DNA of 64,000 bases, from NCBI GenBank assembly GCA_041675205.1, contig JBAYUF010000001.1, positions 84,863-148,862 on the forward strand, written 5' to 3'. This stretch comes from Patescibacteria group bacterium (GTDB lineage: Bacteria > Patescibacteriota > Patescibacteriia > GWA2-46-9). The position numbers and the translations under genes are program-made. Numbering within the stretch: position 1 is the stretch's first letter; the number at the start of each line of letters is the position of its first letter. The notes under the pieces are model-generated. The model searched no databases. It saw only the letters and a list, made by a program, of their open reading frames with translations, and was not told the DNA's origin. Positions 13,990 to 49,192 of this stretch are shown here, one piece after another.

Positions 13990-13991
13990 GT

Positions 13992-20833: not shown

Positions 20834-21688
20834 ATGAACGCTAGTACAAAGGCTGCGAAGAACGAACAGCATGGTACGACCGAATTGCTTCGTCAGTATG
20901 GCGTCATGCCGAAGAAAAAATTTGGTCAAAATTTTTTGGTTGACGACGAGGTGTATGACAGCATCATGACGGCTGCTGCCGTTCAATCCTCAGACACAAT
21001 TTTAGAAATTGGCCCCGGTGTTGGATCGCTCACCGAACGACTCGTCGCAAAAGCGAATCGTGTTGTAGCAGTCGAGATTGATAGAGAGCTTGTTACCGTT
21101 TTGCGTGAACGGTTTGCGGCGGTCAGTAAACTCGAAGTGTGTGAAGGAGATATTTTGGCAAAGCCTCTGAAGGCGTTTAATGTGGCCGCACCATATCGCG
21201 TCGTAGCTAATATTCCGTACAACATCACCGCCGCGCTCATTCGTAAGTTTTTATCAGATGATGTGCAGCCACTATCTATGACGCTTCTTGTGCAGCGAGA
21301 GGTTGCCGAACGTATTGTGGCGGCGCCGGGAAAAATGAGCTTGCTCGGCCTCTCCGCCCAACTGTACGCCACCCCAGTTTTTGTTCGGTCAGTGCCACGG
21401 GAAAGTTTCTATCCACCGCCAAGTGTCATGAGCGCCGTTGTTCATTTTTCATTGGTACATTCGTATCCTTTCAGCGACGTTCCAGAAGCATTTTTTTGGC
21501 GGGTCGCAAAAATGGGTTTTGCCGGTAGAAGAAAGCAGCTACAAACAAATATTCGTGCTGGTTTTCAGCTCTCTCGAGAAGCGTGCGATGCTATTTTTAA
21601 AAAAAGTAACATTGCCGAGCGTGCCCGTGCCCAAGAGTTGACCGTTCTACAGTGGCACACGTTGTCACTGGCGCTACAAAAGTTGTAG
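20834..21688 (+). CDS. rsmA: 16S rRNA (adenine1518/1519-N6)-dimethyltransferase
   Basis: KKFGQNFL motif and the SAM-binding site LEIGPGVGSLT. Confidence 0.9.
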   Translation: MNASTKAAKNEQHGTTELLRQYGVMPKKKFGQNFLVDDEVYDSIMTAAAVQSSDTILEIGPGVGSLTERLVAKANRVVAVEIDRELVTVLRERFAAVSKLEVCEGDILAKPLKAFNVAAPYRVVANIPYNITAALIRKFLSDDVQPLSMTLLVQREVAERIVAAPGKMSLLGLSAQLYATPVFVRSVPRESFYPPPSVMSAVVHFSLVHSYPFSDVPEAFFWRVAKMGFAGRRKQLQTNIRAGFQLSREACDAIFKKSNIAERARAQELTVLQWHTLSLALQKL

Positions 21689-21765
21689 TTTTTCAAAGAA
21701 TAATGGTGCTTTATTTCCGAGTGGAAGCATAAAGGACGAAGAGTACTTTTTGACAGCGTTTTCCT

Positions 21766-21795
21766 TTGACGGGGAGGGTCATTCTCTGCTATAAT
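21766..21795 (+). promoter_or_regulatory. sigma70-type promoter for the giant-protein/T4SS-like operon
   Basis: TTGACG, 18-bp spacer, TATAAT. It lies ~60 nt upstream of the first gene, and a GGAAAG SD precedes the ATG at 21855. Confidence 0.55.
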
Positions 21796-21854
21796 GAGTG
21801 GGTGATTTCCACAATTCTTAAAATAAAAAGCTAGCGAACCATCAAGGAAAGTCG

Positions 21855-22562
21855 ATGATGGATTTTTTTCAAAAACTTGGCGTTCGATTTGATCAGCACA
21901 GCCAATCAATCCTGTTGGCGTTTCTGTTTTTTGTTGGTGGCGTTGGTCTCATTCTTGGTGGAATGAATTTGCGAAGCTCTTTACGAAATCCATTTATTGA
22001 AAAGGGTGTTGGCGCTCTTCAAACAGCCGAGGGAACAACAGCGCTGGTTGACACTGATGGTGATGGCTTAACCGACGAAGAGGAATTGGCGCAGTATGGC
22101 ACGAGTCCGTATTTGGCGGATTCTGACTCAGATGGCGCAAACGATGCCGATGAACTTGCTGCGAGCAGTGACCCCAATTGTCCAACTGGAAAAAATTGTC
22201 AGGCCGTGGCTGAACTTGATGTGCCGAGTAGCGCCGGTGATACCTTCTCGTCGCTCCTACAGGTTTCTGCAAATGGCACAACAGAACCAAGTGCGGCGCA
22301 GATTCGAGCGGCGTTGCTCACTTCCGGTGTGGCTGAATCAGAATTGGCAAAACTAACTGATGAAGAAATAGTTGCTGGGTATCGTAGCGCTGTGCAGGCT
22401 CAAACTTCAACGACAGCGAGTGATGGCGTTCAGAATCTTTCGACAGAAGAAATTCGAAAGGTACTTAAAGAGCAAGGAGTGACTGACGAGCAGCTCTCCA
22501 AAATTTCTGACACCGAACTGCTGAAACTTTACGAAGAGACGCTGCGTCAGACGCAGCCGTAG
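21855..22562 (+). CDS. membrane-anchored hypothetical protein with a DTDGDGLTDEEE calcium-binding-type motif and two tandem ~30-aa repeats (…EEIxxxLxxxGVxExxLxKxxDxE…)
   Basis: N-terminal TM segment. 235 aa. 9-nt gap to the giant gene. Confidence 0.6.
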   Translation: MMDFFQKLGVRFDQHSQSILLAFLFFVGGVGLILGGMNLRSSLRNPFIEKGVGALQTAEGTTALVDTDGDGLTDEEELAQYGTSPYLADSDSDGANDADELAASSDPNCPTGKNCQAVAELDVPSSAGDTFSSLLQVSANGTTEPSAAQIRAALLTSGVAESELAKLTDEEIVAGYRSAVQAQTSTTASDGVQNLSTEEIRKVLKEQGVTDEQLSKISDTELLKLYEETLRQTQP

Positions 22563-22570
22563 TTTTTTAT

Positions 22571-25500
22571 ATGCAGTTAGGATTACATAATCGGCAAAAG
22601 CGTCATCGGTTCGTGGGTGCACTACTCGCGCTTGTGTTTTTATTTACTGGCACGTTTGGAGCGCCGCAACGGGCGAATGCGCAAGCCATCAAGGCCTTTA
22701 CGACATCGGTTAGTGACATTTGGACTTCACTCCAAACTATTGGAGACAAAGCGGTGGCGGCGTACGAGAAAGCAGCAGATATAAAAACAGAAGCACTGAA
22801 AGAGTCGGCCGCGGTGAGCTTTCGTCAGGGCGTTAGTTATTTTTTAAATAAGATTGCCAGTGACACAGCCGTGTGGATTGCCAGCGGTGGGAAAGGGCAA
22901 AAGCCACTCTTTATTACGCAGGGGTGGGGTTCCTATTTGACCGATGCCGCAGAAGGGGCGGCCGGTGCTTTTGTTGATGGACTCATCACCGGCCCAGTGG
23001 CAAGTTGCCAATGTCGTGATCAATACGGCTCAATCGAACCAAATACGGCGACCGAGGAGGTGCAGTGTTTGACTACAACTACCATAAACGGAATTCCTGT
23101 TGAGTGTCAGTGGACCCCTGGTACGAAATCAGATTCAACAAATACGTTGGGACTTATTGCCCAAGGGTTATGTGCACCAGATGCTGATATTCAACTTTCC
23201 ATTAATTTAGGGTTAGCGAATTCCGGTCGACAGCGTGCCCCGAAGTGCACCTTTAGTCGCATTAAGCATAACTGGGAGCAATTAATTCGAGAGAAAAACT
23301 TTCTACCAACGCTTTCTCAGAGTTTTAACCCCAGTCAAAGCGACCTCGGCATTGCGTTGACACTGCAGTCAAATCTGTTGCTTGAAAAAAGAGAAGCCAA
23401 AGAGCGGGCAGAAAAAGAGCGACTTGAAGCTGGTGGGTATAAGCCAGTAACGGGCGGCGTAGGGGATGTTTTGAAGTTACCTGGTCAGACGGTGCGAGGT
23501 ATTTTTGACGGTGTTTTTAAAACGACAACTGAGCAGAATCAATCGCCGACCGGCACCATTATTGGTGATGCTGTTGATATTTTTGTGAATACATTGGCCA
23601 CTAACTTCTTGAAAAATCTTATCAGCGGTGGATTTAGTGGTAATACTTCTTCGAGCGGTGGGAATAAACCTAATTTGAGTAATTTTGAAGCCGAATCCGC
23701 CACTGAAGGGGTTCTTGGCGCGCAAGCTCGACTGGCGCAAGAGCTTCGTCCACGGTTTACTGTTCCTGGTCGGTATGACGTGTTGTCACAGCTCGTGAGT
23801 TGTCAGAATACAAAAAATCCAGGGCCGAATGATTGCGTCATTACTGATAGCTTTCGGAACGCCGTGTCGCAGCGCCTTACCGTTCGTGAAGCTGTTGATC
23901 GCGGACTCATTAACGCAGACGCACCGTTTGGATTTGTTGCGTGGGATCCACAATCAGTTGAGCCAAGTTACAATGAAGGGATACCGTATCGTTCAATTCT
24001 TATTCTACGAAAATATAGGATTGTACCAGTCGGGTGGGAGTTAGCCGCCCGCTACATTGAACGTTTTCAAGATGATTCCCCAAAACGAGTTACGCTTGGT
24101 GAGTTACTGAACCTTTACGATCAACCAGAGCTGCCGGGTGGAGCATTGAACCCATACTATCATTTAGTCGATCCGTCATGGGTGCTCGTGCCACCGGATT
24201 CGTTTTGCAAGTTGCAAGGTTCTGGTCCACAAATTCTAAGCCAGGATGTTTTGCCCGGTGTGGACTCTGACAATGATGGCAAGTTCACTTCAGTTGGTGA
24301 TACCGCCCCCAAAGTCGCGATTTCTCGAAATGCAAATTACTGTGCCGATGAACAGACCTGCATCGCTCGAGATAATGATGGGAACTGTAAGTTCTACGGG
24401 TATTGTACCGAAGAAAAACAAGTTTGGGATTTTGGTGGGAAGAGCTGTTCACCTCAGTTTTCAAGTTGTACCACATTAAAAAATGAACTCAGCGGTACTA
24501 CCGTCTCCTATCTCCTCAATACGGTTGATTTTTCTCCATGTGACGCTAGTTCCGTTGGTTGTGCCATGTATAGTGCAACACCATTGTCTGATACAGTCTG
24601 GAGCACGAGTGATGTCATATTCCTGAATAACCAAGCAGAAACGTGCAGTAAAGATGACGCGGGGTGCCGAAAGTTTATTCGTACCGGCGCGCAATTTCTA
24701 AATGGGTTAAGCACAAATTTAGTTCGTAATCCTGGATTTGAAGTGGTTGCAGAGGACAACAGCTTTACCGGATGGACCGCAAATGGCGGCGCCGTGGAGT
24801 CGGTCACCGAAGCGCAATTTAGTGGGAGCCGGTCACTCAAGGCAACAACACTTAGCGTGCTATCGCAGTCAGTTCTCACTGGGCCACTAGCCAATCAAAC
24901 CGTTACGCTTTCATTTGAAGCTCGTGGAGCCATTGCTGGTCAAGTTCTTGGTTATACCCTTGCGGCAGGTGATGCCATACAGACAGCCGCTACCCTTACC
25001 ACCGAGTGGCAGCACTATGAGGTGCGGAAAACCTATGGTGCCACAGCTGCTTCATCACTTACGCTGGAGCTGTCAGTCCTTACTGGTGTCGCAATTGACA
25101 ATGTAAAGATTCAGCTTGGTGCCGCGTCGGCGTATTCAGCATATGGCGAAGGGGCAAGTAATAGTTCGGTGTATTTAAAACGAGCACCGGCGTACCTCTC
25201 TGCGAAGACTGACATCGACTTTCTTGCAAGTAACGAACAGAGTTGTCGGCCCTCGGCGGTGGCTAGTGATGCCGTAGATGAGAATAGTGAACGGGCGGAA
25301 TGTCAGCCGTATGCCCGCTACTGCACACCGCAGGAAGCTGGTTGTCTGCGCTATACGCCCACCAATCGCACAACACCGGTAACGGCCGTGAGTGGTTCTT
25401 CGTGCCCGGGCGAGTGTGTTGGCTTTGACACCTACACCCAAGGGAAAACTTTCTTTGAGTCGGTAAAATTTGTTGACCTTATTCCTACCTCGGGAGAGCG

Positions 25501-28500
25501 TTGTTCAGCCGCCGCGGTTGGTTGTGATGAATTCACAAACTTAGACACAACAACGCAAGGCGGCGAATCGCGCGAGTTCTACCAACAGGTTCGATTCTGT
25601 GAATTACCAGGTAGAGCAGATGCCGGGACATTCTACACATGGGAAGGGTCAGACGACACCGGCTTCCAGTTGCGAGTCTTTACTTTAAAGAAAACGGATG
25701 TTGGAGTAGAAAATTATTTTGTAAACGATGTCGGTGACACCGGTGTTGACAGCGCCGCGCCGTGTACGAAAATTGATTGGTCCGACGATGGTCAGTCTGC
25801 GACCTGTGCTGATACAACGCAAACCGCTGACCCGGCGTGGCGAACCTGCAACGAGAACACCTATCAAGGGAATCCCGATTGTCGACAGTTTTATAATGAA
25901 GCTGGTTTAGTGTCGTACCGTTTGCTATCCCACACCATTAGCGTGACGGACCAATGTCGGCCATTACGGAAAACGACGTCCAACACCATAGATTGTGAGG
26001 CATCAAATGGTTGGTGGAACAGTGCGTTGCAGGCCTGCTTGTATCAAGCCGTGCCAGGTGAAGGTCGGCAGTGTAATGCGGCGGTTGCTGGCTGCCGTGA
26101 GTATCGAGGCGGCACAGCCGCTCGATATCGAACTATTTTAAATGACACCTTTGAGCGTGGCACTGGAAACTGGGAGGGTGGACGATTAAGCCCGGTGGCC
26201 AGTACAGTCGGCGGACATTCGTATGAAATACTTGATCGCACTACCCGTAAACCAGTAACGGTTTCTGATGGTAGCAGTACGGCAGTTGACGGCTCGGTTA
26301 CAAACGGGGCAACGTACGTCGTGAGTTTTTCAGCACGGGCACAAAATGGCGATACTGATTCAGCTTTCGTACTTTCTTTTGAAAGAAAGAGCGGGGAGGT
26401 CGACCTATTAATTACAGATTCTTTAACGAATGAGTGGCAAACATATCAGAGTGACCCAGTAACTATCTCTGTAGACCCTACTGACCCCCTGGTTGGTTTA
26501 CTTATAACGCATGCTGGTGCAGGTCGCGCTTATGTCGATAACGTTACATTACGCACCACGAGTGATACGCATTACCTCATTAAAAATTCTTGGCAAACAC
26601 CATCCGCTTGCTTTGCTCCGGACACTGGGGAACCCTATTTGGGTTGCCAATCATATAGAGTGAGTGACGGTTCGGAACGTTCTGTGTGGGAGTTTGGCGG
26701 AGCCTGTCATGATAAGGTCGTTGGCTGTGAAGCCGTCATCGACACGCAAAACACAACGATTGGTGAAGTAGCCCCCTTTGCTAAGACATTTGCTGAGGAC
26801 AGTGAAACAATCATTACCGTACCTGAAGACTCGCTCGACTATATCGTTAATGACCCAGCCAAAACATGTAAAGTAAGCGCCCAAGGGTGTGAGCTTTTGG
26901 GGAAAGCAAACCTTTCTACTGCGTCAGCATCTCCAACCCTTCCGTTGGCCTTAGCGGTTTTGCGATGCCACACACAAAGAAATTCTTGTGTTTCAGATTT
27001 GCGCATTAGATTAGTTGCCGCCGGGTATGATAAAGATTTGCTAACAACACCAGGTATTGATGAAAATTTAGTAGCGAAGTTTGACAGTAACGTTTTAGGC
27101 GCTAAGGATGCGTTACTCATCTTGCGCAATTCTGTTGGTCTTGGAGATCCAAACATTAGCACCTGGACGACAGGAGCTGTCTTAAATAATCCTGACACCT
27201 ACGACAGTATTCTTTGTCGAATTGATGAGCTTCAGTGTTCTGCCTTTACTGATAGCGGTGGCTCGACGTATTACTTTAAAGATCCAGGTAGCCAAATTTG
27301 TGAATACCGAACTGACAAACCAATCGCTGGTTGGTACGTTAAGGGAACCATAAGTCTGACCCCAGATTGTAACGCTAGTCAGAATGATCCTGACGTTAAC
27401 ATCCACATTGCCGGTGGCACTGCGCCTAGCCCGCAGTCTGGGTTTACTGGTGTGTGTCCGGCGCAGCAAAATAGTTGTCGCGAATTTATTGATCCTCGGT
27501 CTGATGGCAGCGCTAACATTCTCTATAACGGTGAGTTCATATTGAAAACTGATGACAAACCAGTTCGGTGGAAGGAAACGGTTCCTGGGGATATAGCTGA
27601 TGTAGAGGGTGGTGTTAAAATTATGGAGGGTGGTCTTGAGCAAGAGCGGGTGGCACTTCGAACGCGCACCCTGTACGTATTGTCAGCCGAGGTGAAAGCG
27701 GTAAATGCCGCCGCTACTAAAACAGCGGGCTATGTCGGTATAGATTGTGGCGTGGGTGAAGTGTTTACTGCTAGTGATATTCCCTATGCCTTTGCCGTGC
27801 CACGTTCTACGGAAACCTTCGAACGATTCAGTACACAGTTTTATGTTAGTGGTGACGACCAGGGTGATTGCACCGTTAGTGTTGGTTTGGCGGCAAGTTT
27901 GCTTCCTCGAGACAAAAGCGAATTTACCACAAATAGCGGTGTGATTGTTCGTGCCATTAGCTTACGCGAAGCAGGACTACACTATGAATTAGCCAATGGT
28001 GTATCGCAAAAAGATTGTGCTGGTACGGTAAACAATGCGAACTGCGTGCTGGTTGGTGTGCAGCAAGACTTCACCCAAAAAGGTATCACCGCCAATTTTG
28101 ATGCCGATACAAGCCCCACAAGTACGAAAGTGCCAAACAGCGATAGTCGGGGAGAGTATGTATGTATTACCGCCGAGAGCCGCTGTGTTGGAACTGATAG
28201 GGCGTGTACTAATGATAGCGACTGTCAGCTGCAAAAAGATGCAACGTTCATTGCTAGCGTGCAGCCAGGTCGCGAGTGTGGTGCATGGCTATCTTGCCGG
28301 ACGGCCAGAACAGTTGTCAAAGGTGGGGTTACTAATAACGTTTGTCTGGAGGTTGAAGGGTGCCAAGAGCTCGACGACAAGGGGAATTGTATTCGACGAG
28401 CCCCAGACGTTATTGATACTGACCTGACCTACACGGCAGCCACCGTCGACCTCTTGCGTAATCGGTCCGGGTATTCAAAGGTCGGCTTTGACTGGACAAC

Positions 28501-31036: not shown

Positions 31037-31039
31037 GGT

Positions 31040-31369
31040 ATGGCAAATACATTTAGCAGCGTTGACGAACAATTGCTTGCCCAAAATAGTGATGTGGGTG
31101 AACAAGAGCGCGCACAGCAACTGCGTGGGCTGCAGTCTATTGCCCGTCGGCAACTCGCCTCGCGGGCGGTGAAAAAGGGTGCTGGGGCAGCAGCCCGTTC
31201 GGGCGCCATGGGGGCCGCAAAAGCCGCTCGAACAATTTGGATTATTATGGCTGCTCTTGCCACCCCGGAAGTCTTGACGGTCGTTATCGTTTTGATGCTT
31301 CTTGTACTCTTCATGAATTACGCCTTATCGATACCAGTTGTCGGCGACATACTGAAGTGGTTTCTATGA
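31040..31369 (+). CDS. small membrane protein (109 aa, C-terminal TM hairpin)
   Basis: 4-nt gap after the giant gene. Its stop overlaps the next start (ATGA). Confidence 0.55.
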   Translation: MANTFSSVDEQLLAQNSDVGEQERAQQLRGLQSIARRQLASRAVKKGAGAAARSGAMGAAKAARTIWIIMAALATPEVLTVVIVLMLLVLFMNYALSIPVVGDILKWFL

Positions 31370-34300
31370 GTTTTCGTGATCTCTTAAAGAAGAAATATAT
31401 ACGTCGTCAGGTATTGATAGCTGCAATGCTCGGTTTCATTGTCATGCTTCCTATCGGTGTTAAGGCAGCAGGGATTGGTGACGGGATTCAGGGGACCATC
31501 TTCGGAGTACTTTCATGGGGCATTTATGGCATTGTGCTCTTTTTATCTCGTTTTACCGTTTGGCTTGTCGGTTTTTTAGTAAGCATCGGACAGTATAACG
31601 GATTTATTAATTCACCAGTTGTGTTGCAGGGTTGGGTGGTATTGCGAGATATATCGAACATGTTCTTTGTACTCATCCTACTTTTGATAGCGTTTGGCAC
31701 CATCCTTCATATTGAGCAATATCAAATGAAACGATTGCTGCCCAAAGTGCTCCTCATGGCAATCTTGGTTAACTTTAGTAAAGCCATCGCCGGGCTGCTG
31801 ATTGATTTCTCACAAGTTATAATGCTCACTTTTGTGGCGGCGTATCAGGCTGCCGGAGCGGGGAATTTAGCGCAGGCAATGCATCTAGATAAAATTTTAG
31901 CAATAAAAAATACAGAGGATGGTGGTTTGTTTGATGAAGCTGCTGCCGAGACGCTCGTGGCATTACTACTTGCACTTGTATACATAGTCGTTGCCTCGGT
32001 TGTTGTTGGGGCTTTTGCGGTGATACTTGTGGTACGAATGGTGATGTTGTGGTTGCTCATCATTTTTTCACCACTCGCCTACGTCCTTTCCGTTGTGCCT
32101 ATTGGGCAAAAGTATGCCAGTCAGTGGTGGGAAAATTTTGCAAAATATGTAATTTTAGGTCCGGTCATGGCATTTTTCTTGTGGCTATCACTCGCCACAC
32201 TGCCGACCCTTATTGCAAGTGACGCCGACCTTGCTGTTCGTACACAATCAAGCGGTAGCGCACAATCACTCGCCGAAGAGAAAGAGCAAGTCAAAACCAT
32301 CGGTATTACAGAGATTGGCTCTGGGTCTGTGATGTCCGGATTTCTCATCAGCATCGTTATGCTCTTTGCGTCGCTCATGTTTGCAATCCAGACTGGTGGC
32401 GTGGTTGGGAAGATTGCTGGTGGTGCCTATGGTCAATTACTGAGTAAAGGCACCACAGTGGCAAAGATACCATTAGGCCTTGCCAGTTGGGGAGAAAGAA
32501 AGGTTGCTCGCATGACGGGTGGTGTAACCGCATTTCTGAACCCAGTCCGGGTTGCTCGGGCTTGGCGTGGTTACGCTGCACACAAAGCGGGTCGTGAGGA
32601 GGCAGAAATTGGCTATCGAGCAGGGAGCGCCGCTAGTGCTCATTTTGCCGCTGGTCGAGGGGTGCGCGGCGCACTGCGATTAATGGCCGGAGCGCATGAA
32701 GATGCTTTTGAAACGTATATGGGAACGCATGGAGTGATGCGTTTTGTCAAAACCATGAGCGGCAACAGTAAAACAGGTACGAATGATTTTCTTGATGCGA
32801 AACGATTACAGCAAGAGGCAGATATTGAGCGGGAAACTTTCAATGCCGCAACTGATAAGGGGCGAGTAGATAAGATTCGGCAAATTGGAAAAGAGCACTA
32901 TGCCGACAAATTTCGTACCAAGATTATGAAGGAGGAAGTTGATCGCGTCAGTGTTATTCGTGGTTTTGGGAAAAGCGACAATAAACTTGACCCCTATAAT
33001 TCACGTAAAGAAATTAACGATGAAGGTAAGCAAGAAGTAGTTACCCTTAAAGACGCAGCAGAAAAAGCAGGCGTTGATTTAACAGACACTAGCAGTAGTA
33101 CAACACAGGCGTTTCTGCGTGAATGGGATGAAGATAATGCCCGTCGTGATTTAGGTAAGCGGCCAGGTGGTTTGGAGGGTCGGGTGAGCGCACTTGTTGC
33201 AAAAAAGGGCGATGCTGATATTTTGGACCAAGGCAAACGTACGCTCGGTGAGAAATTAAAAGCGCAAGAATCCTATGTTACGGAGCTTATGGCGGGTGGG
33301 CTTTCGAGCACAGAAAAAGCAACACGTGAGCAACAAGAAAAGACAGTAGATGAAGAATTACGACGTATTACTGCGGCGCTTAAAACGGCAAGTGGTGTTG
33401 AGAAACAATCACTCAACGCACTAAAGACAGAATTACAGAAAGAAAAAAAGAGTGGTCGATTTGATAAAGACACTGCAGGTAACTACTTACTGACCAAGAA
33501 AGAACGGGATGAAAATAAAGAGAAAATTAAAGACTTCAGTGATCCTCGCCGGGCTGATTACAGCAGTGCGCTTAAAGAGCAGAAAAAGCTTTACGGGATG
33601 ACGTTAGACCCAGCCGACGCCGCAGAAAAGATGGAAATTGACCGTGCGAAAGCGAAGGCAGATGAAATAATGGCTCGTAGAAAGGAGCCAGATGTGGCAC
33701 CTCGCCCGTATTTTGCCGAACAAGCATTCAGGCATTTAGAGTCGGAAGAATCGTCGAAATTACCGCGCGAAGCCATGGAGTACGACGAAATTGATGCATT
33801 ACTGAAAGATGCATTACATGAGGGGAACATCGTGAAAACATCAGCGCTCATGAAGAAAGCGGCGAAAGATGCTAACGACAACGAAATTTGGAATAGTTTC
33901 GGTTATGGTAGTGGGCCCGAAGGTGCTGAGCAATTTAGAAAGGCAAAACTTGTCCCATTAATGGGGGACCAGGCCTCAATGTCACTCATGAGTGAGCTGA
34001 ACTATATTAACGAAGATATTGGTCACACTAACACCACTCGTTCGTATGGGGTGAGGAATGGTTCATACTATAAGAAATCTGCAGCTGAGCAATCGGCATC
34101 CGCGGCGTGGGAAGTAACGAAACGGCAATCACGAAACTTTTTGCAAAATACAAACCGACTTGGTTTTGGGTATGAAGATACTGAAGGCAAGTTTCACCTT
34201 GATTTAACTGGCAAGCTTATCATTTCATCAATGCAAAATGACATGAATTACCGGTTGAATCGAAAAGAGTTTAACAACAACCTATTGTTGAAATTACTAG

Positions 34301-34455
34301 AAGACGTAGATTCGCTCGACGACATGGTACGACGGGGTCTATTGCGGAGAGATTTGGTTGATAATATGAAGTCGCTAGGCCGAGAACATGTGCGGCGCGG
34401 TGTACCGAATAGCCCGGGTGGTTTTGAGTCAATGGCACGGCAGCTTTCCGTTTAG
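31366..34455 (+). CDS. VirB6/TrbL-like polytopic membrane protein with a ~600-aa coiled-coil-rich hydrophilic C-terminal extension (TcpH/PrgH-like architecture)
   Basis: ≥7 TM segments in the first ~400 aa, then a K/E-rich region. Start chosen at the ATGA overlap rather than the track start 31237. Confidence 0.6.
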   Translation: MSFRDLLKKKYIRRQVLIAAMLGFIVMLPIGVKAAGIGDGIQGTIFGVLSWGIYGIVLFLSRFTVWLVGFLVSIGQYNGFINSPVVLQGWVVLRDISNMFFVLILLLIAFGTILHIEQYQMKRLLPKVLLMAILVNFSKAIAGLLIDFSQVIMLTFVAAYQAAGAGNLAQAMHLDKILAIKNTEDGGLFDEAAAETLVALLLALVYIVVASVVVGAFAVILVVRMVMLWLLIIFSPLAYVLSVVPIGQKYASQWWENFAKYVILGPVMAFFLWLSLATLPTLIASDADLAVRTQSSGSAQSLAEEKEQVKTIGITEIGSGSVMSGFLISIVMLFASLMFAIQTGGVVGKIAGGAYGQLLSKGTTVAKIPLGLASWGERKVARMTGGVTAFLNPVRVARAWRGYAAHKAGREEAEIGYRAGSAASAHFAAGRGVRGALRLMAGAHEDAFETYMGTHGVMRFVKTMSGNSKTGTNDFLDAKRLQQEADIERETFNAATDKGRVDKIRQIGKEHYADKFRTKIMKEEVDRVSVIRGFGKSDNKLDPYNSRKEINDEGKQEVVTLKDAAEKAGVDLTDTSSSTTQAFLREWDEDNARRDLGKRPGGLEGRVSALVAKKGDADILDQGKRTLGEKLKAQESYVTELMAGGLSSTEKATREQQEKTVDEELRRITAALKTASGVEKQSLNALKTELQKEKKSGRFDKDTAGNYLLTKKERDENKEKIKDFSDPRRADYSSALKEQKKLYGMTLDPADAAEKMEIDRAKAKADEIMARRKEPDVAPRPYFAEQAFRHLESEESSKLPREAMEYDEIDALLKDALHEGNIVKTSALMKKAAKDANDNEIWNSFGYGSGPEGAEQFRKAKLVPLMGDQASMSLMSELNYINEDIGHTNTTRSYGVRNGSYYKKSAAEQSASAAWEVTKRQSRNFLQNTNRLGFGYEDTEGKFHLDLTGKLIISSMQNDMNYRLNRKEFNNNLLLKLLEDVDSLDDMVRRGLLRRDLVDNMKSLGREHVRRGVPNSPGGFESMARQLSV

Positions 34456-34467
34456 GTAAATTTCACT

Positions 34468-35892
34468 ATGCCAATAACAAAAAAAAATGAAACAATCGAG
34501 GTGGTGGCGAAAGCGCTACCCAATCCAGCATATTTAGAATCGGTTACAAAATATTTCCACGAGCAAGTTTTCGTGGAAGATAATGCTCGAGAGGCCGATA
34601 GGTTTTATCGTGTTTTGGTCGAACTGTTACCGAAAGACTCTTTTAAAGAGCGATACCCAGAGCTCTACACTGGCTATGAAAAGCTGCTGTATGAATGTCA
34701 ATTCTATGCCTTTGCTTGGTTGACTGAAGATGAGGCTCTCAACCTAGTGCGTAATCATTTTTCCCTTGCGTTCCAGCTCTCCGCTATTTTAGAGCTCCGC
34801 CGGAAAATAAGAGTTAAACTTATCGCTGATTATCAGATAGAGGCACGTGATGCTTTCAAGGAAAAGTTACGGCGAGCAGCAGAACAAAATACTGAAGTCA
34901 TTACTGGTAAGCAGCTGCAGCAAGACGGAGCTGCTACAACAGCCCCTCCAACGGTTGGCAATTGGATCAGAAATTATGTGGGTGCTGTTGGTACAGCAGG
35001 GCCGGTGGACGCGCTCCGACAAGCCGAATATTTTACAAAAAATAAGAATTTTGACGCACTGACACAGACGGAGAAAGAGGGCATTCGGTGGTTATTGGAA
35101 ATATACGAGTCACTTCGGTGGTCGTCTTTGACACCGGAAGGTTTAGAGGAAGTACTCTCTACAAATATTGATGGGAAAGAGGTGCTCATTAGTGGAGGGG
35201 AGGTGGAGGAAATTTCTCCTGAAATCCGTAAGCTGGTGCAGAAATTTCAAGAAGTAGGGCTCATTTCTGAGAGTGAAAAACCTTCGCCTGCCGTGCTTGA
35301 AGCTGCTGTGGCGGCATCTACTGTTATTGCAGAAAAACCCGTCGCGATGCCGCCGCTTGTTCTCCCTGTTGCCCCTGCACTTGTGACTGGTGAATTGCCA
35401 CGCATTTCTGCCTTGCCTGCTCCGCCAGTGGTTTTACCATTACCTCCAGTTGCACCAATTATAATTCCAAAGCCACCTGCAGCTGAACCACGGGTTGAAA
35501 AAATTATTAATCCCACTCCGCAAAAGGTGGTGGTCACTAAAACGAGCGAGTCGCCATCAATGGTTGACGTGAAACGGTTTGGCGGTGCTGTTGGGCCAAT
35601 TGATGAGTTACGACTTTCGACACTGAATGATTTTCGTAAACTTGACCCAGATCCAGCTGAGGCGGCGAAGCGAATACTGCAAAAGATTCACCTCCTTGAA
35701 GATGAATCATATGATCGGAAGGCCGACGCCATTCGTGCCTGGCGACAAAGCCCCGTTCATCGATTGTATTTAGACGTCATCGACGAGAGTGTTCGCACAG
35801 GTATGCCAGTAACCGAACTCTTTGAGAAATACAACGTGCGCCAAACGGAATGGGAAGCACTTGGCACGTTATCTCGTGATTTGAGTAGCTAA
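34468..35892 (+). CDS. hydrophilic hypothetical protein (474 aa) with a Pro/Ala/Val-rich linker
   Basis: Clean ORF with no TM segment. PVAMPPLVLPVAPALV…PPVVLPLPPVAPIIIPKPPAAEP. Confidence 0.55.
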   Translation: MPITKKNETIEVVAKALPNPAYLESVTKYFHEQVFVEDNAREADRFYRVLVELLPKDSFKERYPELYTGYEKLLYECQFYAFAWLTEDEALNLVRNHFSLAFQLSAILELRRKIRVKLIADYQIEARDAFKEKLRRAAEQNTEVITGKQLQQDGAATTAPPTVGNWIRNYVGAVGTAGPVDALRQAEYFTKNKNFDALTQTEKEGIRWLLEIYESLRWSSLTPEGLEEVLSTNIDGKEVLISGGEVEEISPEIRKLVQKFQEVGLISESEKPSPAVLEAAVAASTVIAEKPVAMPPLVLPVAPALVTGELPRISALPAPPVVLPLPPVAPIIIPKPPAAEPRVEKIINPTPQKVVVTKTSESPSMVDVKRFGGAVGPIDELRLSTLNDFRKLDPDPAEAAKRILQKIHLLEDESYDRKADAIRAWRQSPVHRLYLDVIDESVRTGMPVTELFEKYNVRQTEWEALGTLSRDLSS

Positions 35893-35894
35893 GT

Positions 35895-36326
35895 ATGCAG
35901 CAGTTTATTATTCCCCAGTTCATTGATGAAGAACCCCATATTCTTGGGCCGATAACTGTTCGACAGTTTTTGCTGCTTCTCATTGCGGGCTTCTTTATTT
36001 TCCTCAGCTATCGACTCGCGGATACTGCCTTATTTATTGTGCTGACCATAGTACTACTCATCATAAGCATAACTTTGGCATTCGTTCGGGTGAACGGTCG
36101 CCCTTTTCATTTCTTTTTGCTAAATTTAGTGCAGACATTGCAACGTCCTCGGTTACGCATTTGGCGCAAAGAAGTGAGCAGAGAAGAAATTCAGGACGAA
36201 TCAAAAATGCCAGTCCTCGTCCCAACTGTCATAGTGGCGAAAGCGCCCATTAGTCGTTCCCGTTTGGCGGAACTCTCACTCATTGTTGATACGGGTGGGG
36301 CATATGCTGGTACTGAAGGTAATTAG
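35895..36326 (+). CDS. VirB3/TcpE/PrgI-like small membrane protein (143 aa, two TM helices)
   Basis: Size, two-helix topology and its position immediately upstream of VirB4. Confidence 0.45.
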   Translation: MQQFIIPQFIDEEPHILGPITVRQFLLLLIAGFFIFLSYRLADTALFIVLTIVLLIISITLAFVRVNGRPFHFFLLNLVQTLQRPRLRIWRKEVSREEIQDESKMPVLVPTVIVAKAPISRSRLAELSLIVDTGGAYAGTEGN

Positions 36327-36343
36327 CGTGTAATTGAAAATAA

Positions 36344-37045
36344 GTGGCTAAAAGAAAGGCAAACAAGGCAACACTGAGTACCCAGCGATTTCTAGAAATC
36401 GCTGAAGTGCATGATGATACCGTTGTCCTTAAGGATGGTAGCCTGCGTGCGGTACTACTTGTTTCGTCAATCAATTTTGCCTTGAAGTCAGACGATGAAC
36501 AGGAAGCGATTATTCAGGGATATATGAGCTTCTTGAACTCTATCGATTTTTCGCTTCAAGTGGTTATGCAATCTCGCCAGCTGAATATCGCTGGCTACCT
36601 TGATAAGTTAACAGCCATTGAGCGTGAGCAGACTAACGAGCTCTTAAAGATGCAGACGGGTGAGTACCGTCAATTTATTAGAGAATTGGTTGAATTGGGG
36701 CAGATTATGAATAAGCGGTTCTATGTGGTGGTGCCATATCAACCTGGGAGCGACAGTCAAAAGCCATTTTTTGCACGACTCCGTGAGGTGTTGCGACCAG
36801 CTTCAATCTTGCGTCTCAGTGAGGATCGGTATCTTCGGCATCGACATGAATTAATGCAGCGGGTTGATCATGTGACGAGCGGGCTTAATTCTTTAAGCCT
36901 CGAAGTTCGCATGCTTGATACACAGACGTTAGTTGAACTGTATTATGGAACGTATAATCCTGAGAGTGCGCGGTTAGCGCCACTTGTTGATCTCCATGAT
37001 TTGCAGGTCGATGATACGGCGTTCCGTTCTACACCATCACTATGA
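36344..37045 (+). CDS. N-terminal domain of a Gram-positive-type VirB4 ATPase, encoded as a separate ORF
   Basis: The [38 protein letters not shown] … RFYVVVPYQP pattern matches what I recall of TcpF/PrgJ N-termini (uncertain). Stop overlaps the next ATG (ATGA). Confidence 0.5.
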   Translation: MAKRKANKATLSTQRFLEIAEVHDDTVVLKDGSLRAVLLVSSINFALKSDDEQEAIIQGYMSFLNSIDFSLQVVMQSRQLNIAGYLDKLTAIEREQTNELLKMQTGEYRQFIRELVELGQIMNKRFYVVVPYQPGSDSQKPFFARLREVLRPASILRLSEDRYLRHRHELMQRVDHVTSGLNSLSLEVRMLDTQTLVELYYGTYNPESARLAPLVDLHDLQVDDTAFRSTPSL

Positions 37046-38898
37046 TTACCTTGAATCGAAATAAAAAAAAGATTGCTGCCGCTGCTGAATCCGTTTCGGT
37101 CGAATCTTCAGCGCAGAGCCGAGAGGCGTTGGAGATCGCAAGAGTTTACCAGAAAGGCGTTATTCGATTGCGTGATATTGTCGCGCCGACTGCGTTTGAG
37201 GTTGAAGCATCGTATATTAAGTTGAATGACCAGTACGTGCGCACACTCTTCATAACAGAGTATCCACGGTACATCTCGGTTGGTTGGTTCGCACCACTCA
37301 TCAATGTTAGTACAACCATTGATCTGGCACTCTATATTTACCCAGTGAGTTCGGGAATTGTTTTAAAGCAACTCCGAAACAAGGTGGGGTCACTGGAAGC
37401 AGAAATTATCGCGGAGCACGAAAAGGGTGCACCGCGCGATCCTATTAAAGAAACAGCATTAAAGGATATTGAACGACTCAGAGATGACCTGACACAGGGG
37501 GTAGAGAAGTTCTTTCAATTTGGGCTTTATGTGACGTTGTACGCTGATACGCTTGAGCATCTTGATAGGACAACAGGGGATATCGTGCAGCTGCTTGGCA
37601 CGAAGCTTGTCTATGCTCGAAAGGTGCTCTATCAGGCAGAGCAAGGCTTTATTTCAACCGTCCCACTTGGCGTTGATGAACTGCAGATTACCTTCAACAT
37701 GAACACGTCACCTATTTCTTCTGCGTTTCCCTTTGTTTCTTCAGAACTGACTAGTGACGACGGCATACTGTACGGTATCAATAGGCACAATAACAGCCTC
37801 ATTCTCTTTGATCGGTTCTCGCTGCAGAATGCGAATACGGTCGTGTTCGCCACCTCTGGAGCTGGAAAATCGTACACTATTAAGCTTGAGGTACTGCGGT
37901 CCCTTATGCTTGGGGTGGACGTTATTGTGATTGACCCTGAAAAGGAATATCAACACCTTTCTGAAGCGGTCGGTGGCACCTACTTAAATATTTCATTGGC
38001 CAGCGAAAGCAAGGTAAACCCTTTTGATTTACCGCGCGGTATTGGTGACGATATACAGACAGGGGACGTCATTCGTAGTGCCGTCATTACGCTGAAGGGA
38101 TTACTTCGTATCATGCTCGGTACGTTAACAAGCGAAGAGGATTCGCTGCTTGATCGCGCCCTCTTGGAAACATATGCCAAAAAAGACATTACACCCGAAT
38201 CTGACTTAACCCGAGTAGAGCCACCAATTTTGGCCGACCTGGAAGACGTTTTGAACGGTATGCAAGGCACGCAAGATATGGTGGCCCGGTTGCAAAAATA
38301 TACCAAGGGGACGTTTGCCGGACTTTTGAATAGCACAACAAACGTCGTCACTGATAATCAACTAATTGTTTTTTCAATCCGAGATTTGGAAGATGAATTG
38401 CGACCAATTGCAATTTACACAATTATAAACCACATTTGGAATTTGGTTCGCAGCGAGCGAAAGAAGCGGATTCTTGTAATTGATGAAGCCTGGTGGATGA
38501 TGCAGCACGAAGACAGCGCCAAGTTTATATTTGCGTTAGTGAAACGGGCTCGTAAATACTATCTTGGGGTAACGACTATCACGCAAGACGTCAGCGACTT
38601 TTTAAGTTCACCGTATGGATTAGCGGTAGTGAATAACTCAGCGATGCAACTCTTGTTGAAACAGTCACCAGCCGCCATTGATTTGGTACAGAAGACATTT
38701 CTTTTGACTGAAGGCGAGAAGTACCTGCTACTGGAGGGCAGTGTTGGTGAAGGCATTTTCTTTGCTGGGCCGAAGCATGCGGCTATTAAAGTTGTGGCTT
38801 CGTATACGGAAGATCGTTTGATTACAACTGACCCACGGCAACTCTTAGAAATGGAGGCGGCGGCAAAGCGCGACAACGCTACACCGCCAGTAGCATAA
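37042..38898 (+). CDS. VirB4/TrbE/CagE-family T4SS ATPase (C-terminal 618 aa including ATPase core)
   Basis: YVRTLFITEYPRYISVGWFAPLIN block. Walker A FATSGAGKSYT. Walker B/DEAW block ILVIDEAWWMM. Confidence 0.8.
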   Translation: MITLNRNKKKIAAAAESVSVESSAQSREALEIARVYQKGVIRLRDIVAPTAFEVEASYIKLNDQYVRTLFITEYPRYISVGWFAPLINVSTTIDLALYIYPVSSGIVLKQLRNKVGSLEAEIIAEHEKGAPRDPIKETALKDIERLRDDLTQGVEKFFQFGLYVTLYADTLEHLDRTTGDIVQLLGTKLVYARKVLYQAEQGFISTVPLGVDELQITFNMNTSPISSAFPFVSSELTSDDGILYGINRHNNSLILFDRFSLQNANTVVFATSGAGKSYTIKLEVLRSLMLGVDVIVIDPEKEYQHLSEAVGGTYLNISLASESKVNPFDLPRGIGDDIQTGDVIRSAVITLKGLLRIMLGTLTSEEDSLLDRALLETYAKKDITPESDLTRVEPPILADLEDVLNGMQGTQDMVARLQKYTKGTFAGLLNSTTNVVTDNQLIVFSIRDLEDELRPIAIYTIINHIWNLVRSERKKRILVIDEAWWMMQHEDSAKFIFALVKRARKYYLGVTTITQDVSDFLSSPYGLAVVNNSAMQLLLKQSPAAIDLVQKTFLLTEGEKYLLLEGSVGEGIFFAGPKHAAIKVVASYTEDRLITTDPRQLLEMEAAAKRDNATPPVA

Positions 38899-39455
38899 TG
38901 TATATGACTCGACGAACAAAGATAATAATAGGTGTTGGGTTCTTGTTGGGCGTTGGAGTGCTCCTATACTTTCTCTTTCAATCTCGACAAACCCCGCCAG
39001 AGGTTACTCCGCCACCGGCAAAGCCAGCAGTTGAAAATAGAGACGATGGTACTGCCCAGGTGATTGGTGGCGTCGAACCTACCCCAGAAAGCACAGCGCT
39101 TCGAACTGCCCGGTTTGTCGCAGAGCGGTACGGTACGTTTTCGAGTGATGAAGGTCTGAATGGGGTGCAAGAATTAGTCGCTGTTTCTACGCCTCAAACC
39201 ACTGAATGGCTAACGGGAATCTACATACCGCAAGTAACATCGCGAATGAAAACTAGTGTATTTTACGCTGAATCTGCTCGCGTGCTTGCGGCAACAATCA
39301 TTACGATAAACGATACAACCGCCGGCGTTCATATTCGTCTACAGCGTCAAATTACTGAAGGGAGCGAAGAACGGATGAATAATGCTGAATTGGATATTGA
39401 ACTGACGCGAAGTGGGAACACGTGGCTTGTTTCAGGCATTTTTGAAGACCGCTGA
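38898..39455 (+). CDS. bitopic membrane protein (N-in, single TM, ~150-aa extracytoplasmic domain), VirB8-like in architecture
   Basis: Start overlaps the VirB4 stop (TAATG). 185 aa. Possibly NTF2-like. Confidence 0.4.
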   Translation: MYMTRRTKIIIGVGFLLGVGVLLYFLFQSRQTPPEVTPPPAKPAVENRDDGTAQVIGGVEPTPESTALRTARFVAERYGTFSSDEGLNGVQELVAVSTPQTTEWLTGIYIPQVTSRMKTSVFYAESARVLAATIITINDTTAGVHIRLQRQITEGSEERMNNAELDIELTRSGNTWLVSGIFEDR

Positions 39456-40168
39456 TGAGCGCAGTTGTTGAAGTATGGCGCTGGCTTACAGACGTAATCC
39501 AGCGTTTACTTTTTCCAGTGTTTTGTTTGCGCTGCGGCGTGGAAGGTGATTTTTTATGTGCTGCTTGTCAAAAAACTGTGCCACCGGTGCCGGTTCAAGT
39601 CTGTGTTTTTTGCTCGGTGTCCAGCCCCAATGGGCGTACGTGCAGTGCCTGCAGCCGACATGCGCTTGACGGCGTTTGTGTGCGTGGCATGTACGATGAC
39701 TGGAGTTGGCGGGTGCTCATTACGGCCTGGAAATTTCATGGTGCAGCAATCACGCCGCTCCTCAGTCGGCTTCTTGAGGATAGTATCGCCGTGCTTCCAG
39801 AAAGTTATCGGACTGGGAAGTTTATGGTAGTTCCAGTACCGCTTGCTAGACGTCGACAACGTGAGCGGGGTCGAAATCAATCAGCGGAGCTCGCGAATGC
39901 GCTTGTCGGTCATCAGTTGATTGTAGCTGCGCTTACTCGTGTTCGAGAGACCGCCCAACAATCGCAGTTATCAAAAAAAGATAGGATACGAAATGTTCAT
40001 GCTGCCTTCAAAGCTAATCCTGCGCTTGTGCAACCGGACACAAACTATCTGCTCATCGACGACGTAGTCACTACTGGGGCTACGCTTGAACAAGCGGCGC
40101 AGGCGCTTAAAGAAGTCGGCGCAACGTCTGTTTGGGCAGTTACTCTAGCAAGAAGTCGCTTGCTTTAA
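39455..40168 (+). CDS. comFC: ComF family protein (ComFC): N-terminal 4-Cys zinc finger plus phosphoribosyltransferase-type domain
   Basis: CLRCG…CAAC / CVFC…CSAC cysteine pairs. PRTase motif LLIDDVVTTGATL. Start overlaps the previous stop. Confidence 0.8.
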   Translation: MSAVVEVWRWLTDVIQRLLFPVFCLRCGVEGDFLCAACQKTVPPVPVQVCVFCSVSSPNGRTCSACSRHALDGVCVRGMYDDWSWRVLITAWKFHGAAITPLLSRLLEDSIAVLPESYRTGKFMVVPVPLARRRQRERGRNQSAELANALVGHQLIVAALTRVRETAQQSQLSKKDRIRNVHAAFKANPALVQPDTNYLLIDDVVTTGATLEQAAQALKEVGATSVWAVTLARSRLL

Positions 40169-40369
40169 GTGCTAGTGAGAAAGAAGAAACAAAAAAAGTT
40201 TCTAACGGGTACTTCATCTATTTGCCGTCGCATGGTAGGGACGATTGGCGGAACTTTGAACCAAAAGAACGGCTTAACTTCGCGATTATCGATAAAAGAA
40301 AAGGAAAATTAAGACGAATTTACGAGGAAAATCTAAACTGCTTTGAAATTCCAAAGCTCGCGCTTAAAA

Positions 40370-41133: not shown

Positions 41134-41211
<78 letters not shown>

Positions 41212-41222
<11 letters not shown>

Positions 41223-49191: not shown

Positions 49192-49192
49192 A

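Follow-up and report, generated by a model that had tools for sequence, protein, structure and literature searches.

A probable Patescibacteria-type chromosomal type IV secretion system encoded together with a TSP3 membrane protein and a giant Cys-rich secreted protein

Ten co-directional ORFs (A to J) were called at 21855-40168 of the 64-kb stretch of DNA that was analysed as a whole (the window), and the same ten genes were present in an independent public gene call of the same contig. The genes and the associated features are as follows.

21766-21795, + strand: sigma-70-like promoter candidate, TTGACG-18(TG)-TATAAT, in the 166-nt gap between KsgA and A
21855-22562, + strand: gene A, 235-aa bitopic membrane protein with TSP3 Ca-binding repeats (Pfam TSP3_bac)
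22541-22557, + strand: terminator-like hairpin with T-run at the 3' end of A (pattern match only)
22571-31036, + strand: gene B, 2,821-aa Sec-exported giant protein (signal peptide, CBM_4_9)
31040-31369, + strand: gene C, 109-aa small membrane protein (topology prediction)
31366-34455, + strand: gene D, 1,029-aa extended VirB6/TrbL-like polytopic protein (family-level Pfam matches and fold)
34468-35892, + strand: gene E, 474-aa cytoplasmic protein (sequence)
35895-36326, + strand: gene F, PrgI/VirB3-like protein with two TM segments (Pfam PrgI PF12666)
36344-37045, + strand: gene G, TrsD/TraC-like protein, homologous to the N-terminal domain of VirB4 but encoded separately (NCBIfam)
37042-38898, + strand: gene H, VirB4 ATPase (NCBIfam and Pfam)
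38898-39455, + strand: gene I, 185-aa bitopic protein, PrgL/VirB8-like candidate (family profile)
39455-40168, + strand: gene J, ComF/ComFC with double zinc ribbon and PRTase (Pfam DZR_2 and Pribosyltran)

None of the ten ORFs is disrupted, and they are closely packed, with intergenic spacings of -4 to +17 nt. The junctions from A to J are, in order, +8, +3, -4 (ATGA), +12, +2, +17, -4 (ATGA), -1 (TAATG) and -1 (TGATG) nt. The tight coupling on one strand is as stated in the original prediction, which had, however, counted eleven genes instead of ten. The TTGACG-18-TATAAT promoter that it had placed upstream, with its TG extension, is the top predicted match in 21400-41200 (11/12; the consensus is sigma-70-like, and CPR promoters are uncharacterised), while the total of promoter-like sites in the region (23 found, 24.6 expected) was not above chance. 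The terminator-like hairpin lies 14 nt ahead of the B start and is possibly an attenuation point. The gene layout suggests co-transcription of A to J, and this hairpin between A and B counts against it.

Genes D, F, G, H and, less firmly, I encode a type IV secretion system (T4SS) core. H scored above the cutoff of the NCBIfam CD1110-family VirB4 model (344 bits, cutoff 325; model positions 177-729), matched Pfam P-loop_TraG (4e-29), and showed the Walker A motif ATSGAGKS and the Walker B motif ILVIDEAWW. G matched NCBIfam VirB4_plasma (3e-9), TrsD (6.7e-7) and positions 6-120 of the CD1110 model, with a precomputed PF26593 TraC-like match. F exceeded the cutoff of PrgI PF12666 (35 bits, cutoff 27). 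D has a long K/R-rich helical tail, which is probably cytoplasmic, and a C-terminal globular domain (780-1010) that was modelled confidently. D, F, G and H were collinear in 55/55 related loci, a set that was selected on similarity to D and over-represents close relatives. A bitopic ORF of 182-211 aa followed VirB4 in 37/38 loci. For I, the profile of its C-terminal domain family gave PrgL (7AED) as the top PDB match with E=0.0051 and an hhalign probability of 59%, under standard significance thresholds, and Pfam gave no match; I is probably a PrgL/VirB8-like protein with an NTF2-type domain. J, whose start overlaps the I stop, also matched TIGR00201 comF (8e-26, under the curated cutoff).

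These results bear out most of the components named in the original prediction, namely a VirB6-like polytopic protein with a long tail, a VirB3/TcpE-like protein, a split VirB4 with Walker A and DEAW motifs, and ComFC as the last gene. Its VirB8-like bitopic protein is indeed bitopic, whereas the VirB8 identity is weaker. The Firmicutes-style core that it proposed was recovered by HMM and fold as MPF_FATA-like VirB3, VirB4, VirB6 and, less firmly, VirB8 analogues. Two further proteins accompany this core. C is predicted to have a charged cytoplasmic N-terminus with a 'DEQLL' motif and then a C-terminal TM hairpin. Its position, topology and N-terminal motif were seen again in many relatives; phmmer gave no relatives, and a faint match to the NCBIfam CD1108 conjugation family was obtained (E=0.031). 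In E, a Pro-rich linker connects conserved modules at 1-270 and 360-474, and in relatives these two modules are separate ORFs; E has no relatives in Pfam, NCBIfam or PDB. No VirB1-like protein or cell-wall hydrolase was recognised at the locus.

The two proteins at the head of the cluster are of a different kind. A matched Pfam TSP3_bac above its cutoff (37.7 bits, cutoff 25) and has a single TM segment (15-39), with the TSP3 repeats predicted to be extracellular, in agreement with the Ca-motif membrane protein proposed earlier; its C-terminus carries repeats of a ~35-aa motif, 'LRxLL..G....L..ISDxxL..Y'. Likewise, the predicted signal peptide (ANA-QA site) and 82 Cys of B confirm the 2,821-aa Cys-rich secreted giant. 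CBM_4_9 beta-sandwich domains (residues 716-834 and 1188-1300) are interleaved in B with Cys-rich connector modules, mostly C-x6-C, and a PKD-like motif lies close to the C-terminus. An NCBI entry named 'carbohydrate binding domain-containing protein' matches B at 100% identity, and the N-terminal domain family of B comprises 1,286 representative clusters. The N-terminal 640 aa were modelled poorly (pLDDT 61.6) and gave no structural match.

Pilin-like candidates were found on both sides of the cluster, each beside a DsbA-like gene:

13216-13989, + strand: DsbA-like oxidoreductase (DsbA 4e-26)
13992-14990, + strand: secreted 332-aa pilin-like protein (T4SS_pilin PF18895)
48130-49191, - strand: second pilin-like paralogue, 353 aa with 14 Cys (similarity to 13992-14990)
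49193-49891, - strand: second DsbA-like gene, adjoining the second pilin-like gene (DsbA match)

In the first candidate, a two-TM core resembling VirB2/T4SS pilins is combined with a C-terminal domain rich in Cys, and the protein matched T4SS_pilin PF18895 under the cutoff (E=0.0026, 18.2 bits, cutoff 26.6). The core of the second is 53% identical to it over 87 aa (E=8e-26). Homologues of the first core lay inside or adjoining a T4SS locus in 9 related genomes, and those of the second lay close to T4SS genes in 8 loci. The two dispersed VirB2-like candidates probably belong to the T4SS.

The cluster is flanked by housekeeping genes (UvrA, LeuRS, TsaC, KsgA, RecG and RadA). As the original prediction had noted for relaxase, VirD4 and integrase, a Pfam scan that covered all ORFs of 200 aa or longer and the majority of those of 100-200 aa showed no relaxase, VirD4/FtsK-like ATPase or integrase in the 64-kb window; the remaining ORFs are all too short for relaxase, VirD4 or integrase, and mobility genes are therefore absent from the 64 kb. 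Bracketing att sites, which the prediction would have taken as the mark of an ICE or plasmid remnant, were likewise sought, and no bracketing direct repeats were found. A decayed ICE or plasmid, now devoid of relaxase, coupling protein and integrase, might be suspected, since the top VirB4 scores were to models of conjugative elements (CD1110, Mbov_0397 ICE), the PrgI-TrsD-VirB4 order mirrors TrsC-TrsD-TrsE of pGO1/pIP501, and a tRNA-Ser gene lies ~1 kb downstream. However, the absence of these mobility genes and repeats, a GC content that is uniform between cluster and flanks, and ten intact, packed ORFs make this origin extremely improbable. Moreover, several candidate-phylum-level lineages have LeuRS/KsgA upstream and ComF/RecG downstream of the cluster, a shared chromosomal setting that indicates old vertical inheritance. 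The genome could still carry a coupling protein gene outside the window; many distant VirD4 homologues are known in Patescibacteria (PMC12102498).

The conservation of the neighbourhood, which the original prediction had proposed to survey, extends to the head of the cluster. The order KsgA-TSP3-giant-small-VirB6...PrgI-TrsD-VirB4-bitopic-(ComF) recurred in Uhrbacteria and other MAGs, a Candidatus Uhrbacteria MAG being the nearest relative, and homologues of A with the same architecture lay directly upstream of the giant gene. We considered whether A and B are an independent surface-adhesin module that merely shares a chromosomal position with the T4SS. CPR genomes in general commonly encode large extracellular proteins rich in Cys (PMC4736985; PMC8080830), B carries a Sec signal and is thus not a classical T4SS substrate, the terminator-like hairpin precedes B, and in 9/54 loci the position directly upstream of VirB6 was not occupied by a B homologue. 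In the other 45/54 loci, from divergent lineages, a CBM/Cys-rich secreted protein of 2,300-3,900 aa and a TSP3 membrane protein directly preceded VirB6, with the B homologue adjacent and on the same strand. Furthermore, 3/3 contigs picked via B alone carried the T4SS downstream, the B-C and C-D gaps are only 3 and -4 nt, and some relatives have pilin-like genes between the B homologue and VirB6. A separate module is therefore doubtful. B is a candidate adhesin on account of its export signal, its CBM domains and the conservation of its position. In the 2025 survey, the giant protein is unmentioned and PrgB-like adhesins are reported as undetected (PMC12102498). The conserved link of the giant and TSP3 proteins to the T4SS appears to be the sole new element here, seemingly undiscussed in T4SS papers.

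With these gene identities, this synteny and this lack of mobility genes in 64 kb, the locus is very likely the chromosomal T4SS of ultra-small, host-dependent Patescibacteria (CPR) in its ABY1/Uhrbacteria-like form. Homologue names and synteny would also place its VirB4 in the Patescibacteria clade. The architecture, regarded as undescribed in the original prediction, has already been published (PMC7427843, PMC10633639, PMC12102498). The T4SS of TM7x contains VirB4, VirB6, PrgI and GntX/ComF (McLean 2020, PMC7427843); that of S. epibionticum is essential for epibiotic growth and has no coupling protein or relaxase (Wang 2023, PMC10633639). A phylum-wide survey described TrsD beside VirB4, the TrsD, VirB4, PrgI and VirB6 set, the KsgA neighbourhood and, in class ABY1, linkage to comF/recG/radA (Quinonero-Coronel 2025, PMC12102498). 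The missing relaxase, the component set and the KsgA/comF/recG/radA neighbourhood are thus known from those papers. The suggestion of small-genome, host-dependent bacteria agrees with the CPR origin, and the doubt about conjugation is shared by the literature, in which a non-conjugative role in host interaction is favoured.

Alternatively, the VirB4 channel might import host or environmental DNA for processing by ComFC, RecG and RadA, in the manner of Helicobacter ComB or archaeal Ced. Translational coupling joins ComFC to the last T4SS gene, RecG and RadA lie 4.5-8 kb downstream in the linkage typical of ABY1, GntX occurs in the TM7x locus, ComF directly followed the I-like gene in 11/44 related loci, and VirB4 weakly matched CedB (1e-13, far under the cutoff). 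However, ComF was absent from that position in 33/44 loci, and the CedB match reflects generic VirB4 similarity only. S. epibionticum cannot do without its T4SS, but comEC, comF and dprA are dispensable there, and competence needs ComEC; in the present window, type IV pilus competence genes are encoded separately. We therefore regard DNA uptake as distinctly unlikely.

By analogy with S. epibionticum, whose homologous system is indispensable when it grows on its host, the present apparatus would be non-conjugative and would most likely carry macromolecules, such as proteins, between the epibiont and the host cell. VirB4 (H) would act with TrsD (G), be docked at the membrane by PrgI/VirB3 (F), and energise a channel formed by the extended VirB6 (D) and the PrgL/VirB8-like I, with C and E as lineage-specific accessories. 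A and B would form the extracellular, host-contacting part. B, presumably disulfide-stabilised and with several carbohydrate-binding modules, most likely binds host-surface glycans and holds both envelopes together, a role that would parallel PrgB-type adhesins of Gram-positive conjugation. The DsbA-paired pilin candidates may contribute a short pilus or stalk.

Among known systems, Bordetella Ptl and Brucella VirB also lack a T4CP at the locus and encode Sec-exported proteins with the apparatus, a comparison drawn with Ptl for TM7x by McLean 2020 (PMC7427843). However, both are MPF_T systems of diderms that include VirB7/9/10 and have toxins or effectors as defined substrates, none of which is present here. 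Helicobacter ComB and archaeal Ced are VirB4-based, free of relaxase and linked to DNA-processing genes (ComF, RecG, RadA), but the specific sequence relation ends at VirB4 (CedB 50 bits, cutoff 700), and Saccharibacteria genetics separates T4SS essentiality from competence. The CD1110 family of Clostridioides CTn-type conjugative transposons provided the top curated VirB4 model, spanned jointly by G and H, and C faintly resembles CD1108; here, VirB4 is two ORFs, and transposon functions are absent. The MPF_FATA systems (pGO1/pSK41/pIP501 Trs/Tra; pCF10 Prg/Pcf) share with the present locus the order VirB3-like, TrsD, VirB4, a VirB6 analogue that is polytopic and has a cytoplasmic tail, a PrgL-like protein that is bitopic, and a large surface protein, the adhesin PrgB in pCF10 and the presumed adhesin B here, whose gene accompanies those of the apparatus. 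B lacks an LPXTG motif, is two to three times the size of PrgB and is unrelated to it in sequence; in contrast to these plasmid systems, the locus is chromosomal and vertically inherited, with no relaxase, T4CP, oriT or recognisable cell-wall hydrolase. Compared with the Patescibacteria T4SSs (S. epibionticum SEML1_0006-0019; N. lyticus TM7x; the 2025 survey), the present operon has no tandem pilin array, the two pilin-like genes with Cys-rich tails being DsbA-paired and 7-9 kb off, no VirB1-like hydrolase was recognised, and the TSP3 and giant CBM/Cys-rich proteins at its head are unmentioned in those papers. It shares with them a chromosomal location, adjoining VirB4, TrsD, PrgI/VirB3 and VirB6 genes with no nearby relaxase, the KsgA and comF/recG/radA neighbours (ABY1), ComF/GntX in the locus, and VirB2-like pilin candidates.

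The operon lies in chromosomal DNA of a small-genome bacterium, and the window contains a lone 16S rRNA gene, eight tRNA genes and housekeeping genes (trmD, parB, RNase J, uvrA, leuS, tsaC, ksgA, recG, radA, clpB and ligA). Ten same-strand ORFs, designated A to J, are bounded by ksgA and a convergent HAD hydrolase gene, and the same ten genes are called in a public copy of this contig.

Genes of the operon and its surroundings (coordinates, strand where assigned, product)
20834-21688, KsgA, upstream neighbour
21855-22562, +, A, bitopic protein with calcium-binding repeats
22571-31036, +, B, giant secreted protein
31040-31369, +, C, small membrane protein
31366-34455, +, D, VirB6-like protein
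34468-35892, +, E, two-module fusion
35895-36326, +, F, PrgI/VirB3
36344-37045, +, G, TrsD of the TrsD+VirB4 pair
37042-38898, +, H, VirB4
38898-39455, +, I, bitopic protein following VirB4
39455-40168, +, J, ComF, last operon gene
40370-40987, -, HAD hydrolase
44711-46777, RecG, downstream neighbour
46774-48126, RadA, downstream neighbour
54977-60471, type IV pilus cluster: PilM, unknown 312-aa membrane protein, response regulator, N-methylation-motif pilin, PMT_2 glycosyltransferase, prepilin peptidase

The tight packing described in the original prediction was confirmed, with junctions of +8, +3, -4, +12, +2, +17, -4, -1 and -1 nt in order (range -4 to +17 nt), although the genes number ten and not eleven. 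The predicted TTGACG-18-TATAAT promoter site is present at 21766-21795 and is the best sigma-70-like match in 21400-41200, although this region holds no overall excess of such matches. The GC content is flat, at 0.46-0.50 within the cluster versus 0.47-0.53 in the flanks. A GC-rich hairpin followed by a T-run is located at the very end of A (22541-22557), 14 nt before the start codon of B, and may be an attenuator setting the A:B expression ratio. Elsewhere in the window, the 16S rRNA gene (1904-3386) is solitary, with no 23S or 5S gene in the window and a UDP-glucose dehydrogenase-like gene following it on the other strand. The type IV pilus cluster is ~15 kb from the T4SS. A ~200-nt tandem repeat at 43423-43773, with two copies 76-80% identical, overlaps a mechanical ORF (43418-44026) that is probably not a gene, because it has no family match and an odd composition.

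The core T4SS proteins were assigned by profile and structure searches. H scored 344 bits against the NCBIfam model NF045971 of the CD1110-family VirB4 (cutoff 325), matched Pfam P-loop_TraG at 4e-29, and carries Walker A (ATSGAGKS) and Walker B (ILVIDEAWW) motifs. G, which overlaps H by 4 nt, matched TrsD, VirB4 N-domain and TraC-like models, and G and H jointly covered positions 6-120 and 177-729 of the CD1110 model. The "split VirB4" proposed earlier is therefore a TrsD+VirB4 pair: the two genes do cover the VirB4 model, but they are the same pair as that known from pGO1-type systems. F has two TM segments and matched PrgI (PF12666) with 35 bits, above the Pfam cutoff of 27, in agreement with its prediction as the VirB3-like partner next to VirB4. 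J is ComF, as predicted.

No direct Pfam match was obtained for D. However, 10 of the 37 members of its family match TrbL/VirB6, and several homologues carry precomputed TrbL_3 matches. The AlphaFold model of D was confident in the membrane domain, and the best five Foldseek hits of this model in the PDB were chains of R388 stalk-complex entries, with probabilities of 0.97-1.00 as opposed to 0.41 or less for the next hits; these matches apply to the model as a whole and are not assigned to its C-terminal domain. Four of the five chains should be TrwI/VirB6, because they have 260-272 resolved residues. By family matches and predicted fold, D is thus an extended VirB6 with the character of a VirB6/TrbL-like polytopic channel, and the original assignments of both VirB4 and VirB6 hold. 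The tail of D, ~650 aa long, is K/R-rich and helical and ends in a confidently folded domain. This C-terminal globular domain (residues ~780-1010, window 33700-34400) has a pLDDT of 92-98. It is probably cytoplasmic and, in a system that lacks a coupling protein, might serve to recruit the substrate instead.

I is a bitopic protein without a Pfam match, and a word-indexed homologue search with it returned the identical NCBI protein alone. A bitopic counterpart of 182-211 aa follows VirB4 in 37 of 38 related loci, which were collected with D as the seed. The top PDB match of the profile of its C-terminal domain was PrgL, the VirB8-like protein of pCF10 (E=0.0051; hhalign probability 59%), which is supportive, not conclusive, of I being a PrgL/VirB8-like protein.

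The original prediction stated that a relaxase, VirD4 and an integrase were lacking. Indeed, no relaxase (MOB), VirD4/TcpA/FtsK-like coupling ATPase or integrase was found by Pfam in the 64-kb window, where the scan took in all ORFs of 200 aa or longer and most of the shorter ones. A search for att-like direct repeats bracketing the cluster, in which the nearby tRNA-Ser was also considered as an integration site, found none. Furthermore, MAGs of Uhr-, Falkow-, Buchanan-, Magasanik-, Kerfeld- and Veblenbacteria share this chromosomal neighbourhood. The reading of the locus as an ICE remnant was rejected on these three grounds. At 41185-41374 and 43859-43997, the 5' end of the two tRNA-Ser genes and the sequence upstream of it are partly duplicated (52 nt, 85% identical and separated by 116 nt; 21 nt, 95% identical and separated by 118 nt), in neither case bracketing the cluster.

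We surveyed the conservation of the neighbourhood across CPR, as had been proposed, by scanning species-representative genomes with D as the seed. Of 54 loci that extended far enough upstream, 45 had a homologue of B upstream of VirB6 on the same strand; these homologues were ORFs of ~870-3,230 aa, many of them truncated where the fetched sequence ended, with 27-128 Cys. All three contigs picked only for a B homologue showed the order KsgA, TSP3, giant, small, TrbL_3, two unassigned genes, PrgI and TraC-like. In two of the three, an annotated VirB4 came next, then a gene of 190-225 aa, with ComF after it in one; the third had no gene called over the ~2-kb stretch expected for VirB4, and a 221-aa gene beyond. 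From this gene order, B and A therefore appear to be stable operon members in these lineages. The homologues of D and B with a named organism were nearly all from Patescibacteria/CPR and shared the synteny, and a few records had generic or evidently wrong titles.

The predicted giant Cys-rich secreted protein, B, carries a Sec signal peptide but no C-terminal anchor, and most of its 82 cysteines are arranged as C-x6-C pairs. A Pfam search of ten overlapping 400-aa pieces gave two significant CBM_4_9 domains, at 716-834 and 1188-1300, and nothing else; by eye, two further CBM_4_9 domains look likely, and a PKD-like motif is close to the C-terminus. The identical NCBI entry is named "carbohydrate binding domain-containing protein". 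The family of residues 1-640 comprised 1,286 clusters at 50% identity (799 with E<=1e-30), and the members listed were mostly 2,300-3,700 aa long and matched at the N-terminus. The AlphaFold2 model of residues 1-640 had a mean pLDDT of 61.6, was confident only at ~400-545, and gave no Foldseek match in the PDB at E<=0.001; phmmer with full-length B against the PDB gave none either. The idea that B doubles as a cell-wall hydrolase was dropped, because no peptidoglycan hydrolase (VirB1-like) domain was found in it. The B gene contains a perfect 21-nt tandem duplication at 28737-28778, resulting in the repeated peptide NHADPDA in a region variable among homologues.

The remaining operon products are A, C and E. 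A, predicted as a Ca-motif membrane protein, is bitopic and carries TSP3 calcium-binding repeats. For C, relatives repeat the position, the topology and the N-terminal DEQLL motif as seen by eye, whereas phmmer against the same-position ORFs of relatives gave no match. In E, two conserved modules (residues 1-270 and 360-474) are fused; relatives encode them as separate genes, as in the related locus L003 (13448-15528), and have anywhere from none to seven or more additional genes in between. The family profile of neither module found a PDB relative or a Pfam match. The locus of this genome is the most compact version.

Outside the operon, two genes for secreted pilin-like proteins are each paired with a DsbA-like gene.

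DsbA-paired pilin-like genes (coordinates, strand, content)
13216-14990, +, DsbA-like gene and secreted pilin-like protein (13992-14990)
48130-49891, -, DsbA-like gene and secreted pilin-like paralogue (48130-49191)

The two paralogues share a two-TM VirB2/T4SS-pilin-like core that is 53% identical, and both have a Cys-rich C-terminal domain. PF18895 (T4SS_pilin) matched one of them only (13992-14990), weakly, with 18.2 bits against a cutoff of 26.6. Homologues of the core were found within or beside the T4SS locus in nine related genomes, and in one of these loci (L007) between the giant gene and VirB6. The two paralogues are probably VirB2-like pilins of this T4SS, dispersed in this genome.

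The best-supported model is a non-conjugative, host-contact machine. VirB4, TrsD and PrgI (H, G and F) would energise a membrane channel of VirB6 and the PrgL-like protein, and A, B and the pilin-like proteins, which would be Sec-exported, DsbA-dependent, and calcium- and glycan-binding, would form the extracellular part engaging the host envelope. The linkage with ComF, RecG and RadA would also suit a DNA-uptake T4SS of the ComB or Ced type, and H resembles CedB, at the generic VirB4 level only. However, ComF is adjacent in only 11 of 44 loci, and the experiments in Saccharibacteria argue against an essential link with ComEC: ComEC, ComF and DprA are dispensable in S. epibionticum (Wang 2023, PMC10633639). 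The DNA-uptake reading is thus weakened. Within the host-contact model, we consider it possible, somewhat short of probable, that A and B are integral extracellular parts of the ABY1-type T4SS, namely a glycan-binding stalk or adhesin, stabilised by Ca and disulfides, by which the VirB6 channel, perhaps with the DsbA-dependent pilin-like proteins, is docked onto the host envelope. If so, they would represent the "missing adhesin" of such systems and would help to determine host range.

The original prediction was right in substance but wrong in regarding the architecture as not a described system, since the literature already describes it (McLean 2020, Wang 2023 and Quinonero-Coronel 2025). 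A T4SS region with VirB4, VirB6, PrgI and GntX/ComF was reported in TM7x and other CPR (McLean 2020, PMC7427843). S. epibionticum cannot grow as an epibiont without its T4SS, which has neither a coupling protein nor a relaxase and for which protein export or another role was suggested (Wang 2023, PMC10633639); before the Patescibacteria T4SS, no T4SS had been shown to be essential to its carrier. In the phylum survey (PMC12102498), VirB4 sequences of Patescibacteria group in a clade of their own, related to MPF_FATA, and are adjoined by TrsD, PrgI and VirB6; G and H likewise pair a TrsD homologue with a VirB4 of MPF_FATA affinity. The survey found VirB8/PrgL homologues almost confined to ABY1, and it often met VirB2-like pilins but seldom relaxases. 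KsgA is often close by in the surveyed loci, with comF, recG and radA nearby in ABY1, and the same four genes lie close to virB4 here. A 2025 review counts the Patescibacteria systems among the newest T4SS types.

The 2025 survey detected no adhesins such as PrgB and does not mention giant or large proteins, and PF02018 and PF18884 are absent from its text supplements (PMC12102498). Large Cys-rich extracellular proteins of CPR are known in general terms only (PMC4736985, PMC8080830), and we found no paper linking giant or Cys-rich proteins to the Patescibacteria T4SS in the literature searched. The TSP3 and giant CBM module heading the ABY1-type operon therefore seems undescribed and is a modest addition. 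The giant lectin-like B is an under-reported accessory and, together with its TSP3 partner A and the DsbA-paired pilin-like proteins, provides concrete candidates for the host-contact part. Nearly all experimental work concerns Saccharibacteria, and the locus gives the form of the system in uncultivated ABY1 lineages. Both the core system and its non-conjugative character had been published before, so no new category is opened: the locus is an ABY1/Uhrbacteria-like form of the published Patescibacteria T4SS.
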